From positions 42,618-106,617 of the forward strand of contig JAFGMG010000012.1 in the NCBI GenBank assembly GCA_016927655.1: DNA of 64,000 nt, written 5' to 3'. Position 1 is the first letter of the stretch, and each line of letters opens with the position of its first letter. Shown piece by piece: positions 42,713 through 50,368 of the stretch. The notes beneath the pieces were generated by a model that had not been told where the DNA came from, did not search any database, and was given only the letters and a program-made list of their open reading frames with translations. Source of the stretch: Candidatus Dojkabacteria bacterium (GTDB lineage: Bacteria; Patescibacteriota; Dojkabacteria; B142; JAFGMG01). The translations under genes were made by a program, and so were the position numbers.

Positions 42713-45415
42713 AGGAAGAATTTCGTTTATAAACTTCCCAATGGCAATCTTGTTGTAATTTACAGCGATATAACCGCCCAGAAAAAAGCAGAGAAAAAAA
42801 TAGAGCAGCTCTTAAAAACAACTACTGCAATTTATGAGACTTCCAGAATAATTTTTGAGAATTCGGATTCGGATAAATCTTTTAATAATTTGATTAAAAT
42901 CTTACCTAATTCATTTCAATTTCCAGAATTAATTTGTGTCAGAATTATTTACAACGGCAAAGAATACAAATCAGATAATTTCAAAGAAACGAAGCACAAA
43001 CTTATTCAGTATCTCAAAATCGATAGCCAAGAGCTGGGAGCTATAGAGGTATATTACCTAAAAAACAGAGGTTTCATTGATGAAGAAAAGGATATGATCA
43101 GCGAAGTTGGTTCTCAGATCGTGACTATCATCGAGCAAAAAAGAACACAGCAAAAACTAAAAGACAGCGAAGAAAAATATAGATTGTTATTTAACAACTC
43201 AAAAGATGCTTTGATGACGCTAGAGCCTCCTGATTGGAAATTTACTACCAGCAATCCCGCAATAAAAAAAATGTTTGGAATCAAAAGCGAAAAGGAATTT
43301 ACCTTCTTAAACCCATGGGAAATATCTCCAAAATACCAGCCTGATGGACAGCTCTCAAGTACAAAAGCCAAAAAGATGATTCAAAAAGCGCTTAAAGATG
43401 GCAGTAATTTTTTTGAATGGACTCATAAAAAGCTAGACGGAGAAAATTTCTATGCCACAGTATTACTAGTCAGAATATCATCCGGTAAAAAGAAGTTTCT
43501 TCAAGCCACGGTTCGAGATATTACTGAAGAAAAACACGCAAAATATTTAGCCAAAATTTCCGAACTTCGTTATCGTCGCCTATTCGAAACTGCCCAGGAC
43601 GGTATCCTAATACTGGATTATAAAACCGGAATGATTCTGGCCGCAAACAAGTTTCTCATGAATTTATTAGGTTATTCCAAAAAAGAGCTGCTGAAAAAAC
43701 ACTTCTGGGAGATAAGCTCATTTAAAGATATAGTGCCCTCGAAGAAAAAATTTGCGTCTATACGTAAGAAAAAGTCACTTCATTTTGAAGACCTCCCTCT
43801 TGAAACAAAAAGTGGGAAAAAGGTTGAAGTAGAGTTTGTCTCCACTATGTATCTTGTTGGAGAATCGAAAAGAATACATTGCAACATTCGAGATATTACT
43901 GCTAGAAGGAAGAGTGAGCGCGAAGCTCAAAAATTACTGCGCTTGAGTGAAGAAAAATTTTCCAAAGCCTTTCATACCTCACCATACGTCATGACAATTA
44001 CCGAGATGAAAACCGGCAAATTTATCGAGATTAATGAGGAGTTTACGAAATTAACAGGTTACAGCAGGGAAGAAACTCTTGCCAATTCGTCAATAGGACT
44101 TGGCGTGTGGAGCGACAAGGAAGATCGGGAGCTGATTGCAGCGAAACTTCTTGCAGGTCTGCCTGTTAATAACCAAGAATGCCAATTCAAAACTAAAAGC
44201 GGGGAGGAGAGAACCGGCTTGTACTCTGCTCAATTGATTGAACTTAACCAGGGATTATGCATTTTATCAAGTGTTACTGATATTACAGAACGCGAAAAGA
44301 CGCAGCGGTTAATTCACGATATTAAAAACAGAGACGAAGCACTGCTAGAATCAATAGGTGATGCCGTCTTTGCTACCGATGTTTCGGGGAAAATCCTGCT
44401 TTTTAACAAAATGGCTGAAAAAATGACCGGGAAATCTGCCACAGAGGTAATTGGTAAGCATTATAAAGAGGCAGTAACTTTTATCAGTGAAGATACCGGG
44501 AAACCTCACGAAGATTTTATCGTCAGTGCGGTGGATGAGGATAAAATAACGAAAATGGGCAGCCATGTAGAATTGATCCGCAAAGATGGTGTCAAAATAC
44601 CGGTAGCTGACTCGGCTGCTCCGATCAAAGACATGGAAGGTAAAATTATTGGCTGCGTCGTGGTTTTTCATGACGTGACTCAAGAACGCCTTGTGGATAG
44701 AGCCAAAACAGAATTTGTCTCACTTGCTTCACACCAGCTGCGAACCCCCTTATCTACAATCAACTGGTATGTGGAAATGCTTTTATCGCTGGATGTCGGG
44801 AATCTAACTCCGAAACAAAAACAATATAGTGAGCAGATCAGCAAAGCCAGCAGAAGAATGGTAGATCTGGTAAATGCTCTTTTAAATGTTTCCAGGCTGG
44901 AACTTGGAACATTTATGATCGAACCGAAACGAGTCAATATCAAAAAGACCGCGCAAGGATGCCTCAATGAGCTCAAGTCGAAGATTGTAAAGAAAAAGTT
45001 GAACGTTAGGCAGAGCTACAAAGGAGTTTCTTACATAAAAGCCGATCCTCAGCTCCTGACGATTATTTTCCAGAACCTTCTTTCAAATGCAATTAAATAT
45101 TCGAATAATAACGGGCGCGTCGGCCTAACAGTCAAAAAAGAAAAAAGTGGTATTTTGATAAAGATATCCGACGCTGGTATCGGAATACCCAAGCATCAGC
45201 AAAAGGGAATTTTCCAGAAACTCTTCCGAGCAGACAATGCAAAAACTCTTGACCCGGATGGCACTGGACTGGGATTGTATATTGTCAAACAAATTACTGA
45301 CTATACAGGAGGAGAGGTCTGGTTTAGATCTATTGAAAATAAGGGGACAACTTTTTATATAAGACTGCCTCTATCTGGGATGACAAAGAAGGTTGGCAGT
45401 AAATCACTAACTTAA
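42713..45415 (+). CDS. Multi-PAS sensor histidine kinase (HisKA + HATPase_c), continuous in frame with 42005..42712; the true start is unclear (track start 42890 is a TTG)
   Basis: Several PAS units, H-box SHQLRTPLSTI, and N/G boxes (NLLSNAIKYS, DAGIGIP, GTGLGLYIV). There is no stop between 42713 and 42890 in this frame. Confidence 0.7.
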   Translation, partial: RKNFVYKLPNGNLVVIYSDITAQKKAEKKIEQLLKTTTAIYETSRIIFENSDSDKSFNNLIKILPNSFQFPELICVRIIYNGKEYKSDNFKETKHKLIQYLKIDSQELGAIEVYYLKNRGFIDEEKDMISEVGSQIVTIIEQKRTQQKLKDSEEKYRLLFNNSKDALMTLEPPDWKFTTSNPAIKKMFGIKSEKEFTFLNPWEISPKYQPDGQLSSTKAKKMIQKALKDGSNFFEWTHKKLDGENFYATVLLVRISSGKKKFLQATVRDITEEKHAKYLAKISELRYRRLFETAQDGILILDYKTGMILAANKFLMNLLGYSKKELLKKHFWEISSFKDIVPSKKKFASIRKKKSLHFEDLPLETKSGKKVEVEFVSTMYLVGESKRIHCNIRDITARRKSEREAQKLLRLSEEKFSKAFHTSPYVMTITEMKTGKFIEINEEFTKLTGYSREETLANSSIGLGVWSDKEDRELIAAKLLAGLPVNNQECQFKTKSGEERTGLYSAQLIELNQGLCILSSVTDITEREKTQRLIHDIKNRDEALLESIGDAVFATDVSGKILLFNKMAEKMTGKSATEVIGKHYKEAVTFISEDTGKPHEDFIVSAVDEDKITKMGSHVELIRKDGVKIPVADSAAPIKDMEGKIIGCVVVFHDVTQERLVDRAKTEFVSLASHQLRTPLSTINWYVEMLLSLDVGNLTPKQKQYSEQISKASRRMVDLVNALLNVSRLELGTFMIEPKRVNIKKTAQGCLNELKSKIVKKKLNVRQSYKGVSYIKADPQLLTIIFQNLLSNAIKYSNNNGRVGLTVKKEKSGILIKISDAGIGIPKHQQKGIFQKLFRADNAKTLDPDGTGLGLYIVKQITDYTGGEVWFRSIENKGTTFYIRLPLSGMTKKVGSKSLT

Positions 45416-45432
45416 CTTATTAATAATTTATT

Positions 45433-45804
45433 ATGAAAAAAACAATCCTTCTTATTGATGATGAGCCGGCTTTACTGGCTGCCCTTGTTGACAAATTTTC
45501 ACGAGCTGGATTTGACATTATCAGTGCAGAAAACGGGGAATTGGGCCTGGAATCTGCTCTCGAGAATAAACCTGACCTTATCCTTTTAGATATCATTATG
45601 CCGGTTATGGATGGGATAACTATGCTTAGCAAGCTGCGGACAGACCCCTGGGGAAAGAAAGCCAAGGTAATACTGCTGACGAATTTATCCTACCCTTTGA
45701 AGCCTCCTGAGGGCCTAACTAAAGGAATAAGAGGCTATTTAGTCAAATCTGACTGGCAGATTGAAGATGTGGTGAGTAAAGTCAGCAAGGAACTAGGGGT
45801 ATAA
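45433..45804 (+). CDS. Stand-alone response regulator receiver (CheY-like)
   Basis: ILLIDDEP...DLILLDIIMPVMDG with the phospho-acceptor Asp context. 123 aa. Confidence 0.8.
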   Translation: MKKTILLIDDEPALLAALVDKFSRAGFDIISAENGELGLESALENKPDLILLDIIMPVMDGITMLSKLRTDPWGKKAKVILLTNLSYPLKPPEGLTKGIRGYLVKSDWQIEDVVSKVSKELGV

Positions 45805-45935: not shown

Positions 45936-46307
45936 ATGTTTGAGCCAATTCCACTAAGCCGGGAGCAAGTCTGGGGGTTACAGCTTAAACAATACCTTCA
46001 GACAAAAGATCCCGCCTCCTTTGATTTTGTTGTTGATAATGAGAGGGGAGATTATTACAGGGTAATTGGAGGACAGGCTGTACGAGAAGATTTAGTTGCG
46101 AATTTTGTTGATGAGATGCTTCTTGACCAATCTCCAGAGTCCGGGCTGGAAGGAAAGCCGGCAAACCCTCTCGAACCTGAATTTTTCACAGCAGGTAGAG
46201 AATTTCCTGATGCGAATTTAGGAGGAGCACAAAGTGCTTCGGCAGGGAGGCAATATCCTTCAGGAGCAAGTACATTTGCCGCAAATACCGCTTCAAAATA
46301 CGACTAA
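45936..46307 (+). CDS. Hypothetical protein (GC-richer than context; coding status uncertain)
   Basis: 123-aa ORF with no recognisable domain. Confidence 0.3.
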   Translation: MFEPIPLSREQVWGLQLKQYLQTKDPASFDFVVDNERGDYYRVIGGQAVREDLVANFVDEMLLDQSPESGLEGKPANPLEPEFFTAGREFPDANLGGAQSASAGRQYPSGASTFAANTASKYD

Positions 46308-46311
46308 AATA

Positions 46312-47331
46312 TCAATCCACCCCAACCGCTTTTCTTACTTTCTGTATCACTTTTGCAGCTACCTCACGCACCTCAGCATTATTTTTTATGATCAACTTGT
46401 CTATTCCCGCCTTATCTGCTGCAAATTTTTCTCTCCTCTGCCTTGCCTCTTTGAAATATTCCATAAAAAATTCAAAGAATGCTTTTTTAATTTCCACATC
46501 GCCTATAGTTCCTTTTTTGTAGCGCGACTCAAAATCTTTTAGTTTCGCATCGTCGTATTCCATCAATTTCATATAGCTGAATATTGGATTTTTTGCCGGA
46601 TCACCAGGATCATCAGGATGAATTCTTGCCGGATCAGTTACAGTTGCAAAAATCTGTTTGCGGATTTCTTCTTCAGCTGCAAATATCGGCAGATCATTAC
46701 CAAGAGACTTACTCATTTTTTTCTTCCCATCAATTCCTACAACTCTGGCAACCTCTTTCTTGACATAAAGTTTCGGAACTTTCAAAATCTCCCCATATCT
46801 TTTATTGAAACTTTGCGCGATATTGCGGGCAATCTCAACATGCTGAGTCTGATCCTCCCCAACTGGTACAAAATCCGGTTCAAATATCAAAATATCTGCT
46901 GCCATTAAAACCGGATAGTTAAAAAGTCCGTGATTTATCGAGTCTTCATTTACTCCTTTTTGGAACTTGTCTTTGTATGCATGCATTCTTTTAAGTTCAG
47001 CCATTGTCACAACGTTGTTTAGAATTATGTTCAACTCAGCAATCTCAGGCACACCACTCTCGATATAGAAATTGACATTTTTTCTTTCAGGTTCAAGCCC
47101 AAGAGAAAGATAATCAAGATAAGTATTTCTGACATTTGACCTCATCTGCTCCGGATCATGTACAGTATTGAGGGCATGATAGTCAGCAATGAAATAATTT
47201 GCATGCTTGACTTGAGCTTGGAACATAACGTGCGGTTTGACCGCACCAAGATAGTTTCCCAGATGCAGCCCCTTAGCCGAACTCGGCGTGATCCCAGTAA
47301 CTAAAGTTTGTTTTGATAAGTCTTTTTTCAT
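46312..47331 (-). CDS. trpS: Tryptophanyl-tRNA synthetase
   Basis: Class I HIGH-like LHLGNYLGAV and KMSKS motifs. 339 aa. Confidence 0.88.
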   Translation of the reverse strand: MKKDLSKQTLVTGITPSSAKGLHLGNYLGAVKPHVMFQAQVKHANYFIADYHALNTVHDPEQMRSNVRNTYLDYLSLGLEPERKNVNFYIESGVPEIAELNIILNNVVTMAELKRMHAYKDKFQKGVNEDSINHGLFNYPVLMAADILIFEPDFVPVGEDQTQHVEIARNIAQSFNKRYGEILKVPKLYVKKEVARVVGIDGKKKMSKSLGNDLPIFAAEEEIRKQIFATVTDPARIHPDDPGDPAKNPIFSYMKLMEYDDAKLKDFESRYKKGTIGDVEIKKAFFEFFMEYFKEARQRREKFAADKAGIDKLIIKNNAEVREVAAKVIQKVRKAVGVD

Positions 47332-47350
47332 AAATTATATATACTAATAA

Positions 47351-48037
47351 TTAATTATAATAATAGTCAACCAATTCCTCGGCAAGGGCGTTCATTGAGT
47401 TTATAATTCTGCCGCTCAATGCTTCATAGTTTATTGCAAGAGGGAGCTCAGTACAACCAAGGATAACATTTTCGGCGCCAGCTTCATATAGACTATTCAA
47501 GATTCTCACATAGTCTTTTTTCTCTTTGCCATTATCAGTGCCGGCTAGTACATAACGGATAATTTTGTCTACAGTTTTTCTATCTGCAATGCGAGGCTTG
47601 ATTATCTCAATGCCGAAATTGCCAAGTGTCTTGTCATAGAGATCCGCCCCAAGTGTGACGCTGGAAGCAAGCAGTCCAACTTTCTTCAATCCATTGCATT
47701 TTTCCGCAACTGCATCAATTATCGAGCTAAATTCGACTTCCGTTTCTCCCTGCAGGTCACTCAGCAATAAATGCACAGTGTTACTTGCAATAGCAAGCCT
47801 GGTCGCACCAGCTTGAGTCAAAATTCCGACTGATTTCTTGAGCATTTTTTTCGCATCACCCATCCCATCTTTGTTTGAAATGAAATCAGGGATAGGAACT
47901 GAATCGATAATCACTCTTGGATAATCGTCATTGTTTTTTGCAGCAAAGTTTTTCTGTGAGAACTCTATGATTTTTTTATACAGAATTGCCGTAGCCTGAG
48001 GTCCAACCCCACCTAGAATTCCTATTATTTTGTTCAT
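47351..48037 (-). CDS. Asp/Glu racemase family protein (aspartate racemase-like)
   Basis: IIGILGGVGPQATAILYKKII and a second Cys-containing half (GCTELPL). 19 nt upstream of trpS. Confidence 0.65.
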   Translation of the reverse strand: MNKIIGILGGVGPQATAILYKKIIEFSQKNFAAKNNDDYPRVIIDSVPIPDFISNKDGMGDAKKMLKKSVGILTQAGATRLAIASNTVHLLLSDLQGETEVEFSSIIDAVAEKCNGLKKVGLLASSVTLGADLYDKTLGNFGIEIIKPRIADRKTVDKIIRYVLAGTDNGKEKKDYVRILNSLYEAGAENVILGCTELPLAINYEALSGRIINSMNALAEELVDYYYN

Positions 48038-48052
48038 AATAATTTGTCTAAC

Positions 48053-48080
48053 AAATATAAAAAATCCCGATTTTGCGGGA
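48053..48080 (-). terminator. Intrinsic terminator/attenuator hairpin about 15 nt before the racemase start codon
   Basis: Minus strand ATCCCGCAAAATCGGGAT followed by TTTTTTATATTT. Confidence 0.5.
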
Positions 48081-48205
48081 TAGATTGAAAGAAGAAAAAT
48101 ATTTAAATCAAAGGATTATTCCCGCCAAGTTTGCGGGTTCCACCAGTTATTTAAAGTAAGTTGTACGTTAGTGTTGTTTTTCATAATCTGAAGGAATTAT
48201 AACAT
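48081..48205 (-). promoter_or_regulatory. Candidate cis-regulatory leader (extended -10 TGTTATAAT promoter, upstream hairpin with GGTGGAACCCGC T-box-like core, alternative pairing with the terminator stem)
   Basis: Minus strand ...TGTTATAAT...AACTGGTGGAACCCGCAAACTTGGCGGGAATAAT.... GCGGGAATA can pair with TATCCCGC, the 5' arm of the terminator. Confidence 0.35.
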
Positions 48206-48360
48206 AAAATTGTTGACTGGAGAATTTTGCGCTCCAGAAGGAGGTAGCTTTTTATTACTTTTCTATGTATTACCGATAGGTAATGTTGCTTTATTATTCC
48301 ATTTCTATCAACCCCACACCCCTTTACTACCAGCCAATCTGAAGCCTACAAACTCTTACC

Positions 48361-48390
48361 TATTATCAAACATTGCCGATCGGCAATGTC
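48361..48390 (-). terminator. Possible lepA terminator (18-nt perfect palindrome + weak U tract)
   Basis: Minus strand GACATTGCCGATCGGCAATGTTTGATAATA. Confidence 0.35.
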
Positions 48391-48481
48391 TAAAAAATGC
48401 TCTACAAGACAGAGGCTATGACAATGAAAAATCCAATCCGAGAAGACTAAAACCAATAAATATCCCTTCACTGCAAATCAA

Positions 48482-50368
48482 CTACGAAGTCTTCAGTGCC
48501 TCCAAAAAAGCCTCCTTTGGAATTTCGACCTTCCCAAACATTTTCATTCTCTTCTTTCCCTTTTTCTGCTTTTCAAGAAGCTTTTTCTTTCTAGTCACGT
48601 CACCACCATATAGCTTAGCAGTTACATCTTTTTTGTAGGCATCAATAGTCTCTCTTGCAATTACTTTCCCTCCAATAGCAGACTGGATTGGCACTTTGAA
48701 CTGCTGTCTTGGAATTATATCTTTTAACTTTGCTACAACTGCTTTGCCTTTCGCAAAAGAATTGTCCCTGTGAGTTAGAAATGAAAGTGCTTCCACCTCC
48801 AGGTAATTAACCAAGATGCTCACTTTGACAATATCAGAAGTCCTGTATTCATAAAACTCATAATCCATCGAAGCATAACCCTGACTGATTGATTTCAATT
48901 TATCAAAATAGTTCACAATTATTTCTCCAGTTGGAATTTCATACTTGAGTATTACGTGCTTTTTACCTTTAATCGTTTCATCCCCAGTCACATATTCCAT
49001 TAATTTATACACACCTCTTGCTGCTTGTGAGATTTCCATAATAGATCCGATGTATTCTTCCGGAGTGATTATTTCTAATTTAACCCAAGGTTCTTTAACT
49101 TCTTCAATGAGTGACATGTCCGGGAATTCCGCAGCATTTCTAATATTTAAATACTCGCCTTCAATATTTGCCACGTTAAGATTTGGAATTTTTGAATAAT
49201 CCTTCGTAGTAAGTTTGATTTTGTATTCAACAGTAGGAGTGGTAGAAATAAGCGAAACGTCAAATTCCCTTTCAAGCCTTTCCTGAGTAATTTCAAGATG
49301 TAAAAGCCCAAGGAATCCGCAGACAAAACCAGATCCAAGAACGGGAGAATTCTCCCTTTGGACGGTCAAGGCTGAATCATTCAAGGCAAGCTTCTCAATC
49401 GCATCTGCTAATTCTTCAAATTCATCACTCTCAATAGGATATAAAGAGGCATATACCATTGGTTTTGGAGGATGATAGCCGGGAAGCGGATCAATGTCTT
49501 TATTGCTTTGATAATCAGAATTCAAAACTATAGTATCTCCGATATGAATTGCTTTGATATCTTTGAGCCCCGTTGCTATGTAGCCGACCTCGCCAAGATC
49601 TATCTGCCTATCCTTTTGCATTCTTGGGAGCAGGTAGCCGATTTCAATTGGTTCAATTTCAGTCTTTGTTTCAATTGTGTGCAGATTTTCATCAGCGTTG
49701 ATCTCCCCCTCCATGACTTTGACCATTGCCACTACACCTTTGTGCTCATCATAGAATGAATCAAATATCAGCGCCTTTGTGACGCCATTATTTGCAGGTT
49801 CTGGAGGCGGGACTTTTTTTACAATCATGTCTAAAAGGTTTTCCACTCCGAGACCAGTCTTACCGGAAGTTTCGACGATTTCATCCGGATCAAACCCAAA
49901 AGTGGCTATCAATTCTTCTTTTGTGCTATCGACATCAGCGCTTGGCAAATCGACTTTGTTGATAACAGGAATGATCGTAAGATTGTGTTCGAGTGCTTTG
50001 TAGACAGTAGTAAGAGTTTGAGCTTGAATGCCCTGAGTCGCATCGACAAGTAATATCGCGCCTTCCGAGGCTGCAAGCGATCTGGAAACTTCATATGAGA
50101 AATCCACATGCCCAGGCGTGTCGATGAGATTTAGAACATAGTCTTTGTAGTGCATCCTCACTGTCTGGAGTTTGATTGTAATGCCCCTCTCCTGTTCCAA
50201 TTCAAGTGTATCAAGCATTCTATCTTTGCTTTCGCGCTTCTCCACTGCCCCGGTAAATTCCATAATTCGATCAGCCAAAGTCGATTTGCCATGATCGATA
50301 TGTGCAATGATCGAGAAATTCCGAATTTTATTGAGTGCTTTTGTTTTTTCCAGGTCCAAATTTGCCAT
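48482..50368 (-). CDS. lepA: Elongation factor 4
   Basis: NFSIIAHIDHGKSTLADRI G-domain, DTPGHVDF, NKVD. 628 aa. Confidence 0.92.
   Translation of the reverse strand: MANLDLEKTKALNKIRNFSIIAHIDHGKSTLADRIMEFTGAVEKRESKDRMLDTLELEQERGITIKLQTVRMHYKDYVLNLIDTPGHVDFSYEVSRSLAASEGAILLVDATQGIQAQTLTTVYKALEHNLTIIPVINKVDLPSADVDSTKEELIATFGFDPDEIVETSGKTGLGVENLLDMIVKKVPPPEPANNGVTKALIFDSFYDEHKGVVAMVKVMEGEINADENLHTIETKTEIEPIEIGYLLPRMQKDRQIDLGEVGYIATGLKDIKAIHIGDTIVLNSDYQSNKDIDPLPGYHPPKPMVYASLYPIESDEFEELADAIEKLALNDSALTVQRENSPVLGSGFVCGFLGLLHLEITQERLEREFDVSLISTTPTVEYKIKLTTKDYSKIPNLNVANIEGEYLNIRNAAEFPDMSLIEEVKEPWVKLEIITPEEYIGSIMEISQAARGVYKLMEYVTGDETIKGKKHVILKYEIPTGEIIVNYFDKLKSISQGYASMDYEFYEYRTSDIVKVSILVNYLEVEALSFLTHRDNSFAKGKAVVAKLKDIIPRQQFKVPIQSAIGGKVIARETIDAYKKDVTAKLYGGDVTRKKKLLEKQKKGKKRMKMFGKVEIPKEAFLEALKTS

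Follow-up and report, generated by a model that had tools for sequence, protein, structure and literature searches.

A tryptophan-codon leader and alternative RNA helices point to a classical attenuator upstream of a racemase-trpS operon in a Dojkabacteria bacterium

What controls a tryptophan--tRNA ligase gene in a Candidate Phyla Radiation (CPR) bacterium? The question is raised by a stretch of 64,000 nucleotides (nt) from a Candidatus Dojkabacteria genome (assembly GCA_016927655.1, contig JAFGMG010000012.1, positions 42,618 to 106,617; hereafter the window), in which an amino acid racemase gene (47351..48037) and trpS (46312..47331), separated by a gap of 19 nt, follow lepA (50368..48482) after a 444-nt intergenic region. 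A sequence-only reading of this region had described an attenuator built from an intrinsic terminator and hairpins that exclude one another, placed before an operon that contains an aminoacyl-tRNA synthetase gene, and had tentatively likened its core to a T-box. Our analysis, which was computational throughout (sequence, folding and alignment), supports the attenuator architecture. We conclude that the element is very probably a classical ribosome-mediated (trpL-type) attenuator that ties expression of racemase and trpS to the supply of charged tRNA-Trp. The leader, lepA, the racemase gene and trpS all lie on the minus strand, to which every coordinate given for them refers.

The leader contains a short open reading frame (ORF) that resembles trpL. 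The ORF listing gives 22 codons followed by TAA (48116..48184), encoding MKNNTNVQLTLNNWWNPQTWRE, and the motif AACTGGTGGAACC at 48148..48136, which had been taken for a T-box-like core, is part of its coding sequence: it reads AAC TGG TGG AAC, the codons for Asn-Trp-Trp-Asn. The tandem Trp codons TGG TGG (48140..48145) are the proposed regulatory stall site, and an in-frame TGGTGG is kept in seven loci. Trp accounts for 3 of the 22 codons of MKNNTNVQLTLNNWWNPQTWRE, compared to a Trp codon frequency of 0.96% in the long ORFs of the window. An extended -10 element, TGTTATAAT (48204..48196), is found by direct reading of the sequence, with the racemase ATG (48037) about 160 nt downstream of it, confirming the promoter element that had been proposed there. 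A simple promoter scan reported nothing at the leader because a usable -35 element is absent. We infer a transcription start near 48189, which would make the transcript nearly leaderless, with a 5' untranslated region (UTR) of about 3-7 nt before the leader ATG. Two related loci, L055 and L035 (loci are designated by L numbers), have a similar TATAAT followed by a spacer of 9-11 nt and then the leader ATG, and the stretch from -10 to ATG in the window, TATAATTCCTTCAGATTATG, is closely like that of L055, TATAATTCTTTCAGAACATG.

Four complementary segments accompany and follow the Trp codons. Segment 1 (CCCGC, 48133..48137) begins 2 nt after the tandem Trp codons and forms the 5' arm of hairpin 1, the anti-antiterminator, by pairing across a 7-nt loop with the GCGGG (48125-48121) of segment 2 (GCGGGA, 48120..48125), the 3' arm; both this hairpin and the motif that precedes it are present as previously described. 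The third Trp codon of the leader (48127-48125) overlaps segment 2, and the stop codon TAA (48118-48116) lies 2 nt past it. Segment 3 (AUCCCGC, 48075..48081) has two possible partners, its AUCCCG being the 5' arm of the terminator and its UCCCGC the antiterminator partner of segment 2. Segment 4 and the U-tract (48059..48069) complete the element, with CGGGAU as the terminator 3' arm (48069-48064) and a U-tract at 48063-48059 that is followed by AUAUUU.

The terminator, ATCCCG-CAAAAT-CGGGAT at 48081..48064, has a GC-rich stem of 6 base pairs (bp) and a T-run, and it is the single terminator-like site that a terminator scan found within 47800-48700. Its position just before the racemase gene had been recognized from the sequence, although two of the details need revision: in place of U7 there are 5 free T, or T6 counting the last T of the stem, followed by ATATTT, and the end of the T-run is 21 nt rather than 15 nt from the racemase ATG. 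The predicted alternative pairing between the 3' arm of hairpin 1 and the 5' arm of the terminator is real. GCGGGA pairs with UCCCGC over 6 bp, with 2 more past a 1-nt bulge, at -12.7 kcal/mol (RNAduplex), and in an RNAduplex scan of the whole window leader no stretch paired better with the terminator 5' arm than segment 2. Among the terminators of the window, only this one lies in a 5' UTR with a preceding short ORF that carries codons cognate to its operon (Trp), and our search of the window for other leader-peptide attenuators, defined as a 5'-UTR terminator after a short ORF, found none.

We propose that these parts would work together as follows. Transcription would begin a few nucleotides before the 22-codon leader ORF, from the extended -10 element, and a ribosome would translate the leader right behind RNA polymerase. 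When Trp-tRNA is scarce, the ribosome would stall at TGG TGG (48145-48140) with its footprint over segment 1 (CCCGC), and the freed segment 2 (GCGGGA) would pair with segment 3 (UCCCGC) once this is made. The resulting antiterminator would pre-empt the terminator and allow the polymerase to continue into the racemase gene and trpS. With ample Trp-tRNA, the ribosome would reach the TAA (48118-48116) and occupy segment 2; in the absence of a ribosome, hairpin 1:2 would form. With segment 2 occupied or held in hairpin 1:2, the segment 3:4 terminator and its U-tract would halt transcription 21 nt before the racemase ATG, and expression in vivo would be expected to respond to Trp. In the window the distance from the first base of the second Trp codon to the start of segment 2 is 17 nt. 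Of the six core tandem-Trp leaders, five have segment 1 beginning 1-2 nt past the tandem Trp codons, and all six place segment 2 under a ribosome at the stop codon.

The same module, consisting of a tandem-Trp leader ORF, three-way complementary segments and a terminator, is present in at least six more related CPR contigs (L101, L102, L103, L105, L027 and L030). Close relatives were found by exact-protein look-ups of the best TrpS matches, and the percentages given here for L100-L105 are TrpS identities to the window TrpS. In L101 (77%), lepA and a trpR-like gene (PF01371) are followed by the leader MMDKIVTKKELNWWSPFHKRDRLT, a CCCG/CGGG hairpin, a terminator (UCCCGC/GCGGGA-U7), the racemase gene, an EamA gene and trpS. 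The leader of L102 (76%), MNTIQNTTKNWWNLASWRGISV, precedes a terminator (AUCCC/GGGAU), trpB2, the racemase gene and trpS, while L103 (72%) has a trpR-like gene, the leader MISNCKKQNLNWWKLLI with hairpin ACUCCU/AGGAGU, a terminator (AUCUCCU/AGGAGAU), trpB and trpS. L105 (71%) has the leader MKNLSQGQNLNWWFSQN, a terminator and trpS, and the contig of L100 (82%) opens within the 3' arm of the terminator, 25 nt ahead of the racemase gene. Run SRR13394437 contains L102 together with a contig that matches the trpS region of the window identically. Two more distant metagenome loci, L027 and L030, carry a tandem-Trp leader and terminator before trpB2 or trpB, the racemase gene and trpS; the leader ATG of L027 overlaps the stop codon of its trpR-like gene (ATGA). 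In L034, L035, L043 and L055, racemase-trpS is preceded by a single-Trp leader with a switch of the same type.

Across these loci the position of the module is always upstream of Trp genes, namely trpS, racemase-trpS, trpB-trpS or trpB-racemase-trpS, and many loci have the leader before trpB and not before the racemase gene. It often follows a trpR-like gene, which is directly upstream of the leader in L101, L103, L027, L030 and L034. A terminator was found in all related leaders, and the racemase-trpS pair recurs in many CPR contigs. A trpS scan of genome contigs yielded one moderately close relative, the Saccharibacteria-labelled L001 (61%), which has a YbaK::trpS fusion without a leader, and a racemase-profile scan of metagenome contigs yielded relatives of at most 55% identity among the matches listed.

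The structure proposed for the leader is conserved in the relatives, where the module recurs with compensatory changes. Plain MAFFT left the helices out of register, and covariation was scored on 8 sequences in fixed windows that were hand-anchored on the helix cores. For hairpin 1 and the terminator, 92.7% of cells were paired, 12 of 12 pairs had changed on both sides and none of 500 shuffles was as good; slid registers gave 32-53% paired. The antiterminator (segment 2:3) had 89.3% of cells paired, with 7 of 7 pairs changed on both sides, and on four of the five measures none of the 500 shuffles matched it. The core of segments 1-4 changes as a set, being CCCGC/GCGGG in the window, L101, L102 and L105, CUCCU/AGGAG in L103, UCCGC/GCGGG with an extended GGC/GCC in L027, UCCCC/AGGGA in L034 and CCUCC/GGAGG in L043.

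In all 11 leaders compared, the best partner of the terminator 5' arm was one region 8-25 nt downstream of the Trp codon or codons, and this region was the 3' arm of hairpin 1 in all 8 leaders of the anchored alignment. The energies of these duplexes ranged from -11.6 to -20.5 kcal/mol over the 11 leaders, versus -6.2 to -11.5 kcal/mol for the terminator hairpins. We then modeled the ribosome as a mask with a footprint from -15 to +11 around the A-site codon, folding the transcript as it stands just before segment 4 is made. In the window the probability that segment 3 is sequestered was 0.42 without a ribosome; it rose to 0.90 when the A site held the second Trp codon and fell to 0.10 when it held the stop codon. 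The corresponding values were 0.25, 0.97 and 0.16 for L102, 0.37, 0.81 and 0.32 for L103, and 0.44, 0.80 and 0.27 for L105. When folded at full length and equilibrium, L102, L103 and L027 flip between terminator and antiterminator.

A number of observations count against an attenuator of this type. The U-tract is broken up (U5-6, A, U, A, UUU), no Shine-Dalgarno (SD) sequence precedes the leader ATG, as is the case for nearly all genes of the window, and a ribosome stalled at the third Trp codon, within segment 2, would promote termination. In L034 segment 3 is sequestered in every ribosome state (1.00, 1.00 and 1.00), and L030 lacks an antiterminator in the register of the others, although its mask folding nonetheless switches (0.20, 0.74 and 0.20). 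The window antiterminator is short, at 6 bp plus 2 after the bulge, and the full-length window leader at equilibrium keeps its terminator, the probability of which falls from 0.93 to 0.67-0.70 when segment 1 is masked. Because the equilibrium fold does not flip and only the co-transcriptional snapshot does, the window switch, as modeled, must be kinetic. The switch of the E. coli trp leader is kinetic as well, and there too the terminator is the more stable structure.

The statistics of the single leader also temper the case. An ATG-initiated ORF of at most 40 amino acids with an in-frame TGGTGG arose in 1.4% of 20000 dinucleotide shuffles of the intergenic region; taken alone, this is suggestive and not decisive. 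The minimum free energy of the whole 158-nt leader is unremarkable (z = -1.7), and the significance of the element comes from the ORF and from conservation rather than from this energy. Finally, hand anchoring on the helices biases the pair counts toward structure. Despite this bias, the coordinated switches of all four segments would be hard to explain otherwise.

The closest parallel in design is the E. coli or enterobacterial trp leader (RF00513), which likewise has a short leader ORF with tandem Trp codons, alternative 1:2, 2:3 and 3:4 pairings, an intrinsic terminator just before the first structural gene and a stop codon at which the ribosome covers segment 2; PMC7755916 gives a summary of the classical mechanism. 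The combination of the module with a TrpR-family gene in relatives recalls the dual control of E. coli. Unlike its E. coli counterpart, the element controls racemase-trpS or trpB2/trpB-racemase-trpS and not trpEDCBA, its helices are much shorter in AT-rich sequence, and the window leader is near-leaderless without an SD sequence in a CPR host. The Rfam Trp_leader model (RF00513), the one weak match with a related theme, scored 18.1 bits against the window (E = 0.16-0.66), which is below its gathering threshold of 41, and the window leader is not a member of the family. In this sub-threshold alignment the UGGUGG of the model falls on the window UGGUGG and the model terminator on the window terminator, which fits an analogy or very remote similarity and would not indicate membership.

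Precedents exist for leader-peptide attenuators with cognate codons that control aminoacyl-tRNA synthetase genes. In Streptomyces, classical attenuators have been predicted upstream of trpS (trpS2) and leuS (Seliverstov et al. 2005, PMC1262725); that study cites the E. coli pheST (pheM) attenuator as proteobacterial precedent. The Streptomyces elements belong to another phylum, have no detectable sequence relationship to ours and, in the case of trpS2, control a second trpS copy, whereas trpS here is co-transcribed with a racemase gene and, in relatives, with trpB2 and an EamA transporter gene. The CPR loci also recall trpR-IGR-trpBA of Chlamydia trachomatis, in that both belong to reduced genomes keeping only a Trp salvage step (TrpB) and that the order trpR-like gene, intergenic leader, trpB is found in L027, L103 and L030. 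The putative TrpL of C. trachomatis is atypical, with 59 amino acids and non-consecutive Trp codons, and is predicted to be a poor attenuator (PMC7755916). By contrast, the tandem Trp codons of the CPR leaders are canonical, their alternative helices clear and their terminators strong.

A separate trpS leader was seen in Deefgea spp. (Betaproteobacteria), where a short ORF (L007:2760-2813 and L008:2760-2813), encoding MNLIKHTLSVAYYWWRL in L007 and MNLSKHTLSVSYYWWRL in L008, is followed by a GC-rich hairpin and a long T-run, then an SD sequence and then trpS. From its sequence this looks like an independent proteobacterial leader-peptide attenuator of trpS.

Could something other than stalling at Trp codons set the choice between terminator and antiterminator? 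A TnaC-like arrest peptide, or an RNA-binding protein of the TRAP-like or TrpR-like kind, is an improbable candidate for this role. In 6 of 7 leaders the residue before the tandem Trp is Asn, giving (L/K)NWW, which hints at a constraint on the peptide, and the trpR-like gene directly upstream of the leader in the relatives listed above would favor control by a protein. However, the leader peptides vary from 17 to 31 amino acids, and outside N-W-W neither their sequence nor their length is kept. TnaC mediates induction by excess Trp, a response of the wrong regulatory sign for trpS and trpB. As for a TrpR-like protein, a tblastn search of the window that took in the 275 nt upstream of the promoter detected neither genes nor remnants of the trpR-like, trpB or EamA kinds. 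Proteins of the PF01371 family are DNA-binding repressors, and their simplest role would be an added layer of control at the promoter, as in E. coli. TRAP-mediated (Bacillus-type) attenuation was ruled out by the single (G/U)AG triplet in the 158-nt leader, compared to the roughly 9-11 expected for a TRAP array. Neither an arrest peptide nor a regulatory protein is needed to explain the data.

Less probable still is that the terminator serves lepA or is constitutive, with racemase-trpS transcribed independently and the tandem-Trp ORF present by chance. The terminator does lie in the lepA-racemase intergenic region, and the shuffle frequency and whole-leader z given above would allow for a chance ORF. 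Yet the terminator is 400 nt past the lepA stop codon, downstream of the -10 element and the leader ORF, and a nearer hairpin, ATTGCCGATCGGCAAT (48387-48372), could serve lepA. The 21 nt between the terminator and the racemase ATG are too few to hold a promoter. Leader ORF and terminator travel as a unit, appearing before trpB (L102, L103 and L027), before trpS (L105) and after trpR-like genes, and the sequence-only reading's own alternative of a simple lepA terminator fails in relatives where the module has an upstream neighbor other than lepA. All three helices covary, which also argues against chance. ATTGCCGATCGGCAAT itself is a perfect 16-nt palindrome that starts 95 nt past the lepA stop codon, with GTTTGATAAT coming next, and it could act as a weak terminator for lepA or, upstream of the leader promoter, as an operator bound by a protein.

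The T-box reading, in which the NCCA end of uncharged tRNA-Trp would pair with UGGN in a bulge and stabilize the antiterminator, draws on the resemblance of GGUGGAACCCGC to the conserved T-box sequence, GGUGGNACCGCG, and on the position of an element with terminator and antiterminator alternatives before an aminoacyl-tRNA synthetase operon. Using cmscan with permissive filters, we obtained no match to RF00230 at E<=10 in 47900-48600 (701 nt) or 48040-48210 (171 nt). Neither the whole window nor any of 20 related loci gave a T-box at the gathering score, and no other Rfam family gave a credible match at the leader. Folding revealed no Stem I-like element; with only about 45 nt between the -10 element and the motif, all of it coding, a Stem I or a specifier loop would not fit. 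The motif lies 5' of hairpin 1, outside the antiterminator helix and its bulge, and takes the forms GGTGGAACC, GGTGGAGCC, GGTGGAAAC, GGTGGTTCT and GGTGGCAGA in relatives. Only the in-frame TGG TGG is conserved, the bases that follow it varying over seven loci (AACC, AGCC, AAAC, TTCT, CAGA and AAAA).

On this evidence the T-box reading is effectively refuted. The failed T-box tests and the conserved in-frame tandem Trp codons together point to a translating ribosome that reads the supply of charged tRNA-Trp as the likely sensor, and not to uncharged tRNA bound by the RNA. The element shares with the trpS T-box leaders of Firmicutes (RF00230) a goal, more TrpS when charged tRNA-Trp is low, and the use of a terminator/antiterminator switch. 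It differs in that a translating ribosome would do the sensing here, versus direct tRNA binding there, and the T-box likeness of GGUGGNACC is superficial. An GGUGGNACC motif before an aminoacyl-tRNA synthetase gene need not be a T-box, which serves as a warning against misannotation.

The mechanism that we propose is that of the textbook trp attenuator and introduces no new principle. Its setting, a group of ultra-small bacteria, appears to be undescribed, as a literature search combining CPR or Patescibacteria with leader peptide or attenuation gave nothing relevant on a classical Trp attenuator in CPR bacteria. Because leader-peptide attenuation needs a ribosome close behind RNA polymerase, a conserved attenuator would provide indirect evidence of transcription-translation coupling in uncultured, ribosome-atypical CPR bacteria. 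It would also mean that attenuation operates here on an mRNA without an SD sequence and with almost no 5' UTR.

The recurrence of the same genes links an Asp/Glu-type racemase and an EamA transporter to Trp supply across many CPR genomes through guilt by association. L101, L102, L103, L027, L030, L034, L023, L025 and L111 bring together members of one recurring set: a trpR-like gene (PF01371), TrpB2 or TrpB, the racemase, an EamA/YddG-like transporter and trpS. The trpR-like protein matches TIGR01321 at 58 bits, below the cutoff, and in L111 (Roizmanbacteria CP065004.1) only the racemase gene comes after the trpR-like gene, at a distance of 10 nt. Because trpR-like, TrpB, EamA and trpS genes recur with it, the racemase is suggested to belong to a Trp regulon, where it may act on Trp, or on Ser for TrpB.

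It is possible, although on balance unlikely, that the attenuator defines a CPR-specific Trp-starvation regulon (Dojkabacteria and Microgenomates) composed of the racemase, TrpB2, an EamA/YddG-like transporter and TrpS, with the racemase as a Trp-related salvage enzyme. In such a regulon the racemase might turn D-Trp into L-Trp, or else make L-Ser available to TrpB2 from D-Ser; TrpS would often be fused to a YbaK-type editing domain or encoded beside tRNA-Trp, and the module would often stand behind a TrpR-like gene. If so, regulation by tight transcription-translation coupling would have its first evidence in CPR bacteria, with their unusual ribosomes and, here, mRNAs that are leaderless or free of SD sequences.

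Both genes of the operon have clear family assignments, and the NCBI proteins that match their products at 100% identity carry the name Candidatus Dojkabacteria. The racemase (228 amino acids) is of the Asp/Glu type, which is independent of pyridoxal phosphate; it matches PF01177 at 1.6e-26 and the NCBIfam amino acid racemase model TIGR00035 at 134.5 bits (cutoff 93.1), and its closest solved structures are aspartate racemases. The tryptophan--tRNA ligase (339 amino acids) matches PF00579 and the NCBIfam trpS model TIGR00233 at 276.8 bits (cutoff 176.75). The TrpS of many relatives carries an N-terminal YbaK/ProX-type editing domain (PF04073) as a fusion, as in L018:1029-2555, L019:1328-2815 and L001:2509-3990, and that of some is fused to a tRNA-binding domain (PF01588); the window TrpS has neither. 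In more distant CPR loci a tRNA-Trp (CCA) gene lies directly upstream of racemase-trpS in place of the leader peptide (L018:1-58, L037:2380-2452 and L038:1356-1433), the L018 copy being cut at the contig end and its CCA anticodon read by eye. This arrangement is a different way to cluster Trp-decoding components.

The window has a G+C content of 38.7%, and SD-like motifs lie upstream of only 5 of its 51 long ORFs. At several of its genes a TATAAT ends 6-7 nt before the ATG (starts at, for example, 50368 for lepA, 31654, 38067, 4090 and 58208). The scarcity of SD motifs and the placement of these TATAAT elements suggest that leaderless mRNAs are widespread in this Dojkabacteria genome. Convergent to trpS, on the plus strand at 42890-45804, are genes for a multi-PAS histidine kinase (841 amino acids) and a stand-alone response-regulator receiver (123 amino acids), and an ORF of 123 amino acids without a Pfam match lies between the receiver gene and trpS (45936-46307). 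Among the related loci, L030 carries a group I intron (RF00028, 64.3 bits) at 918-1119 on the minus strand, just upstream of its trpR-like gene.

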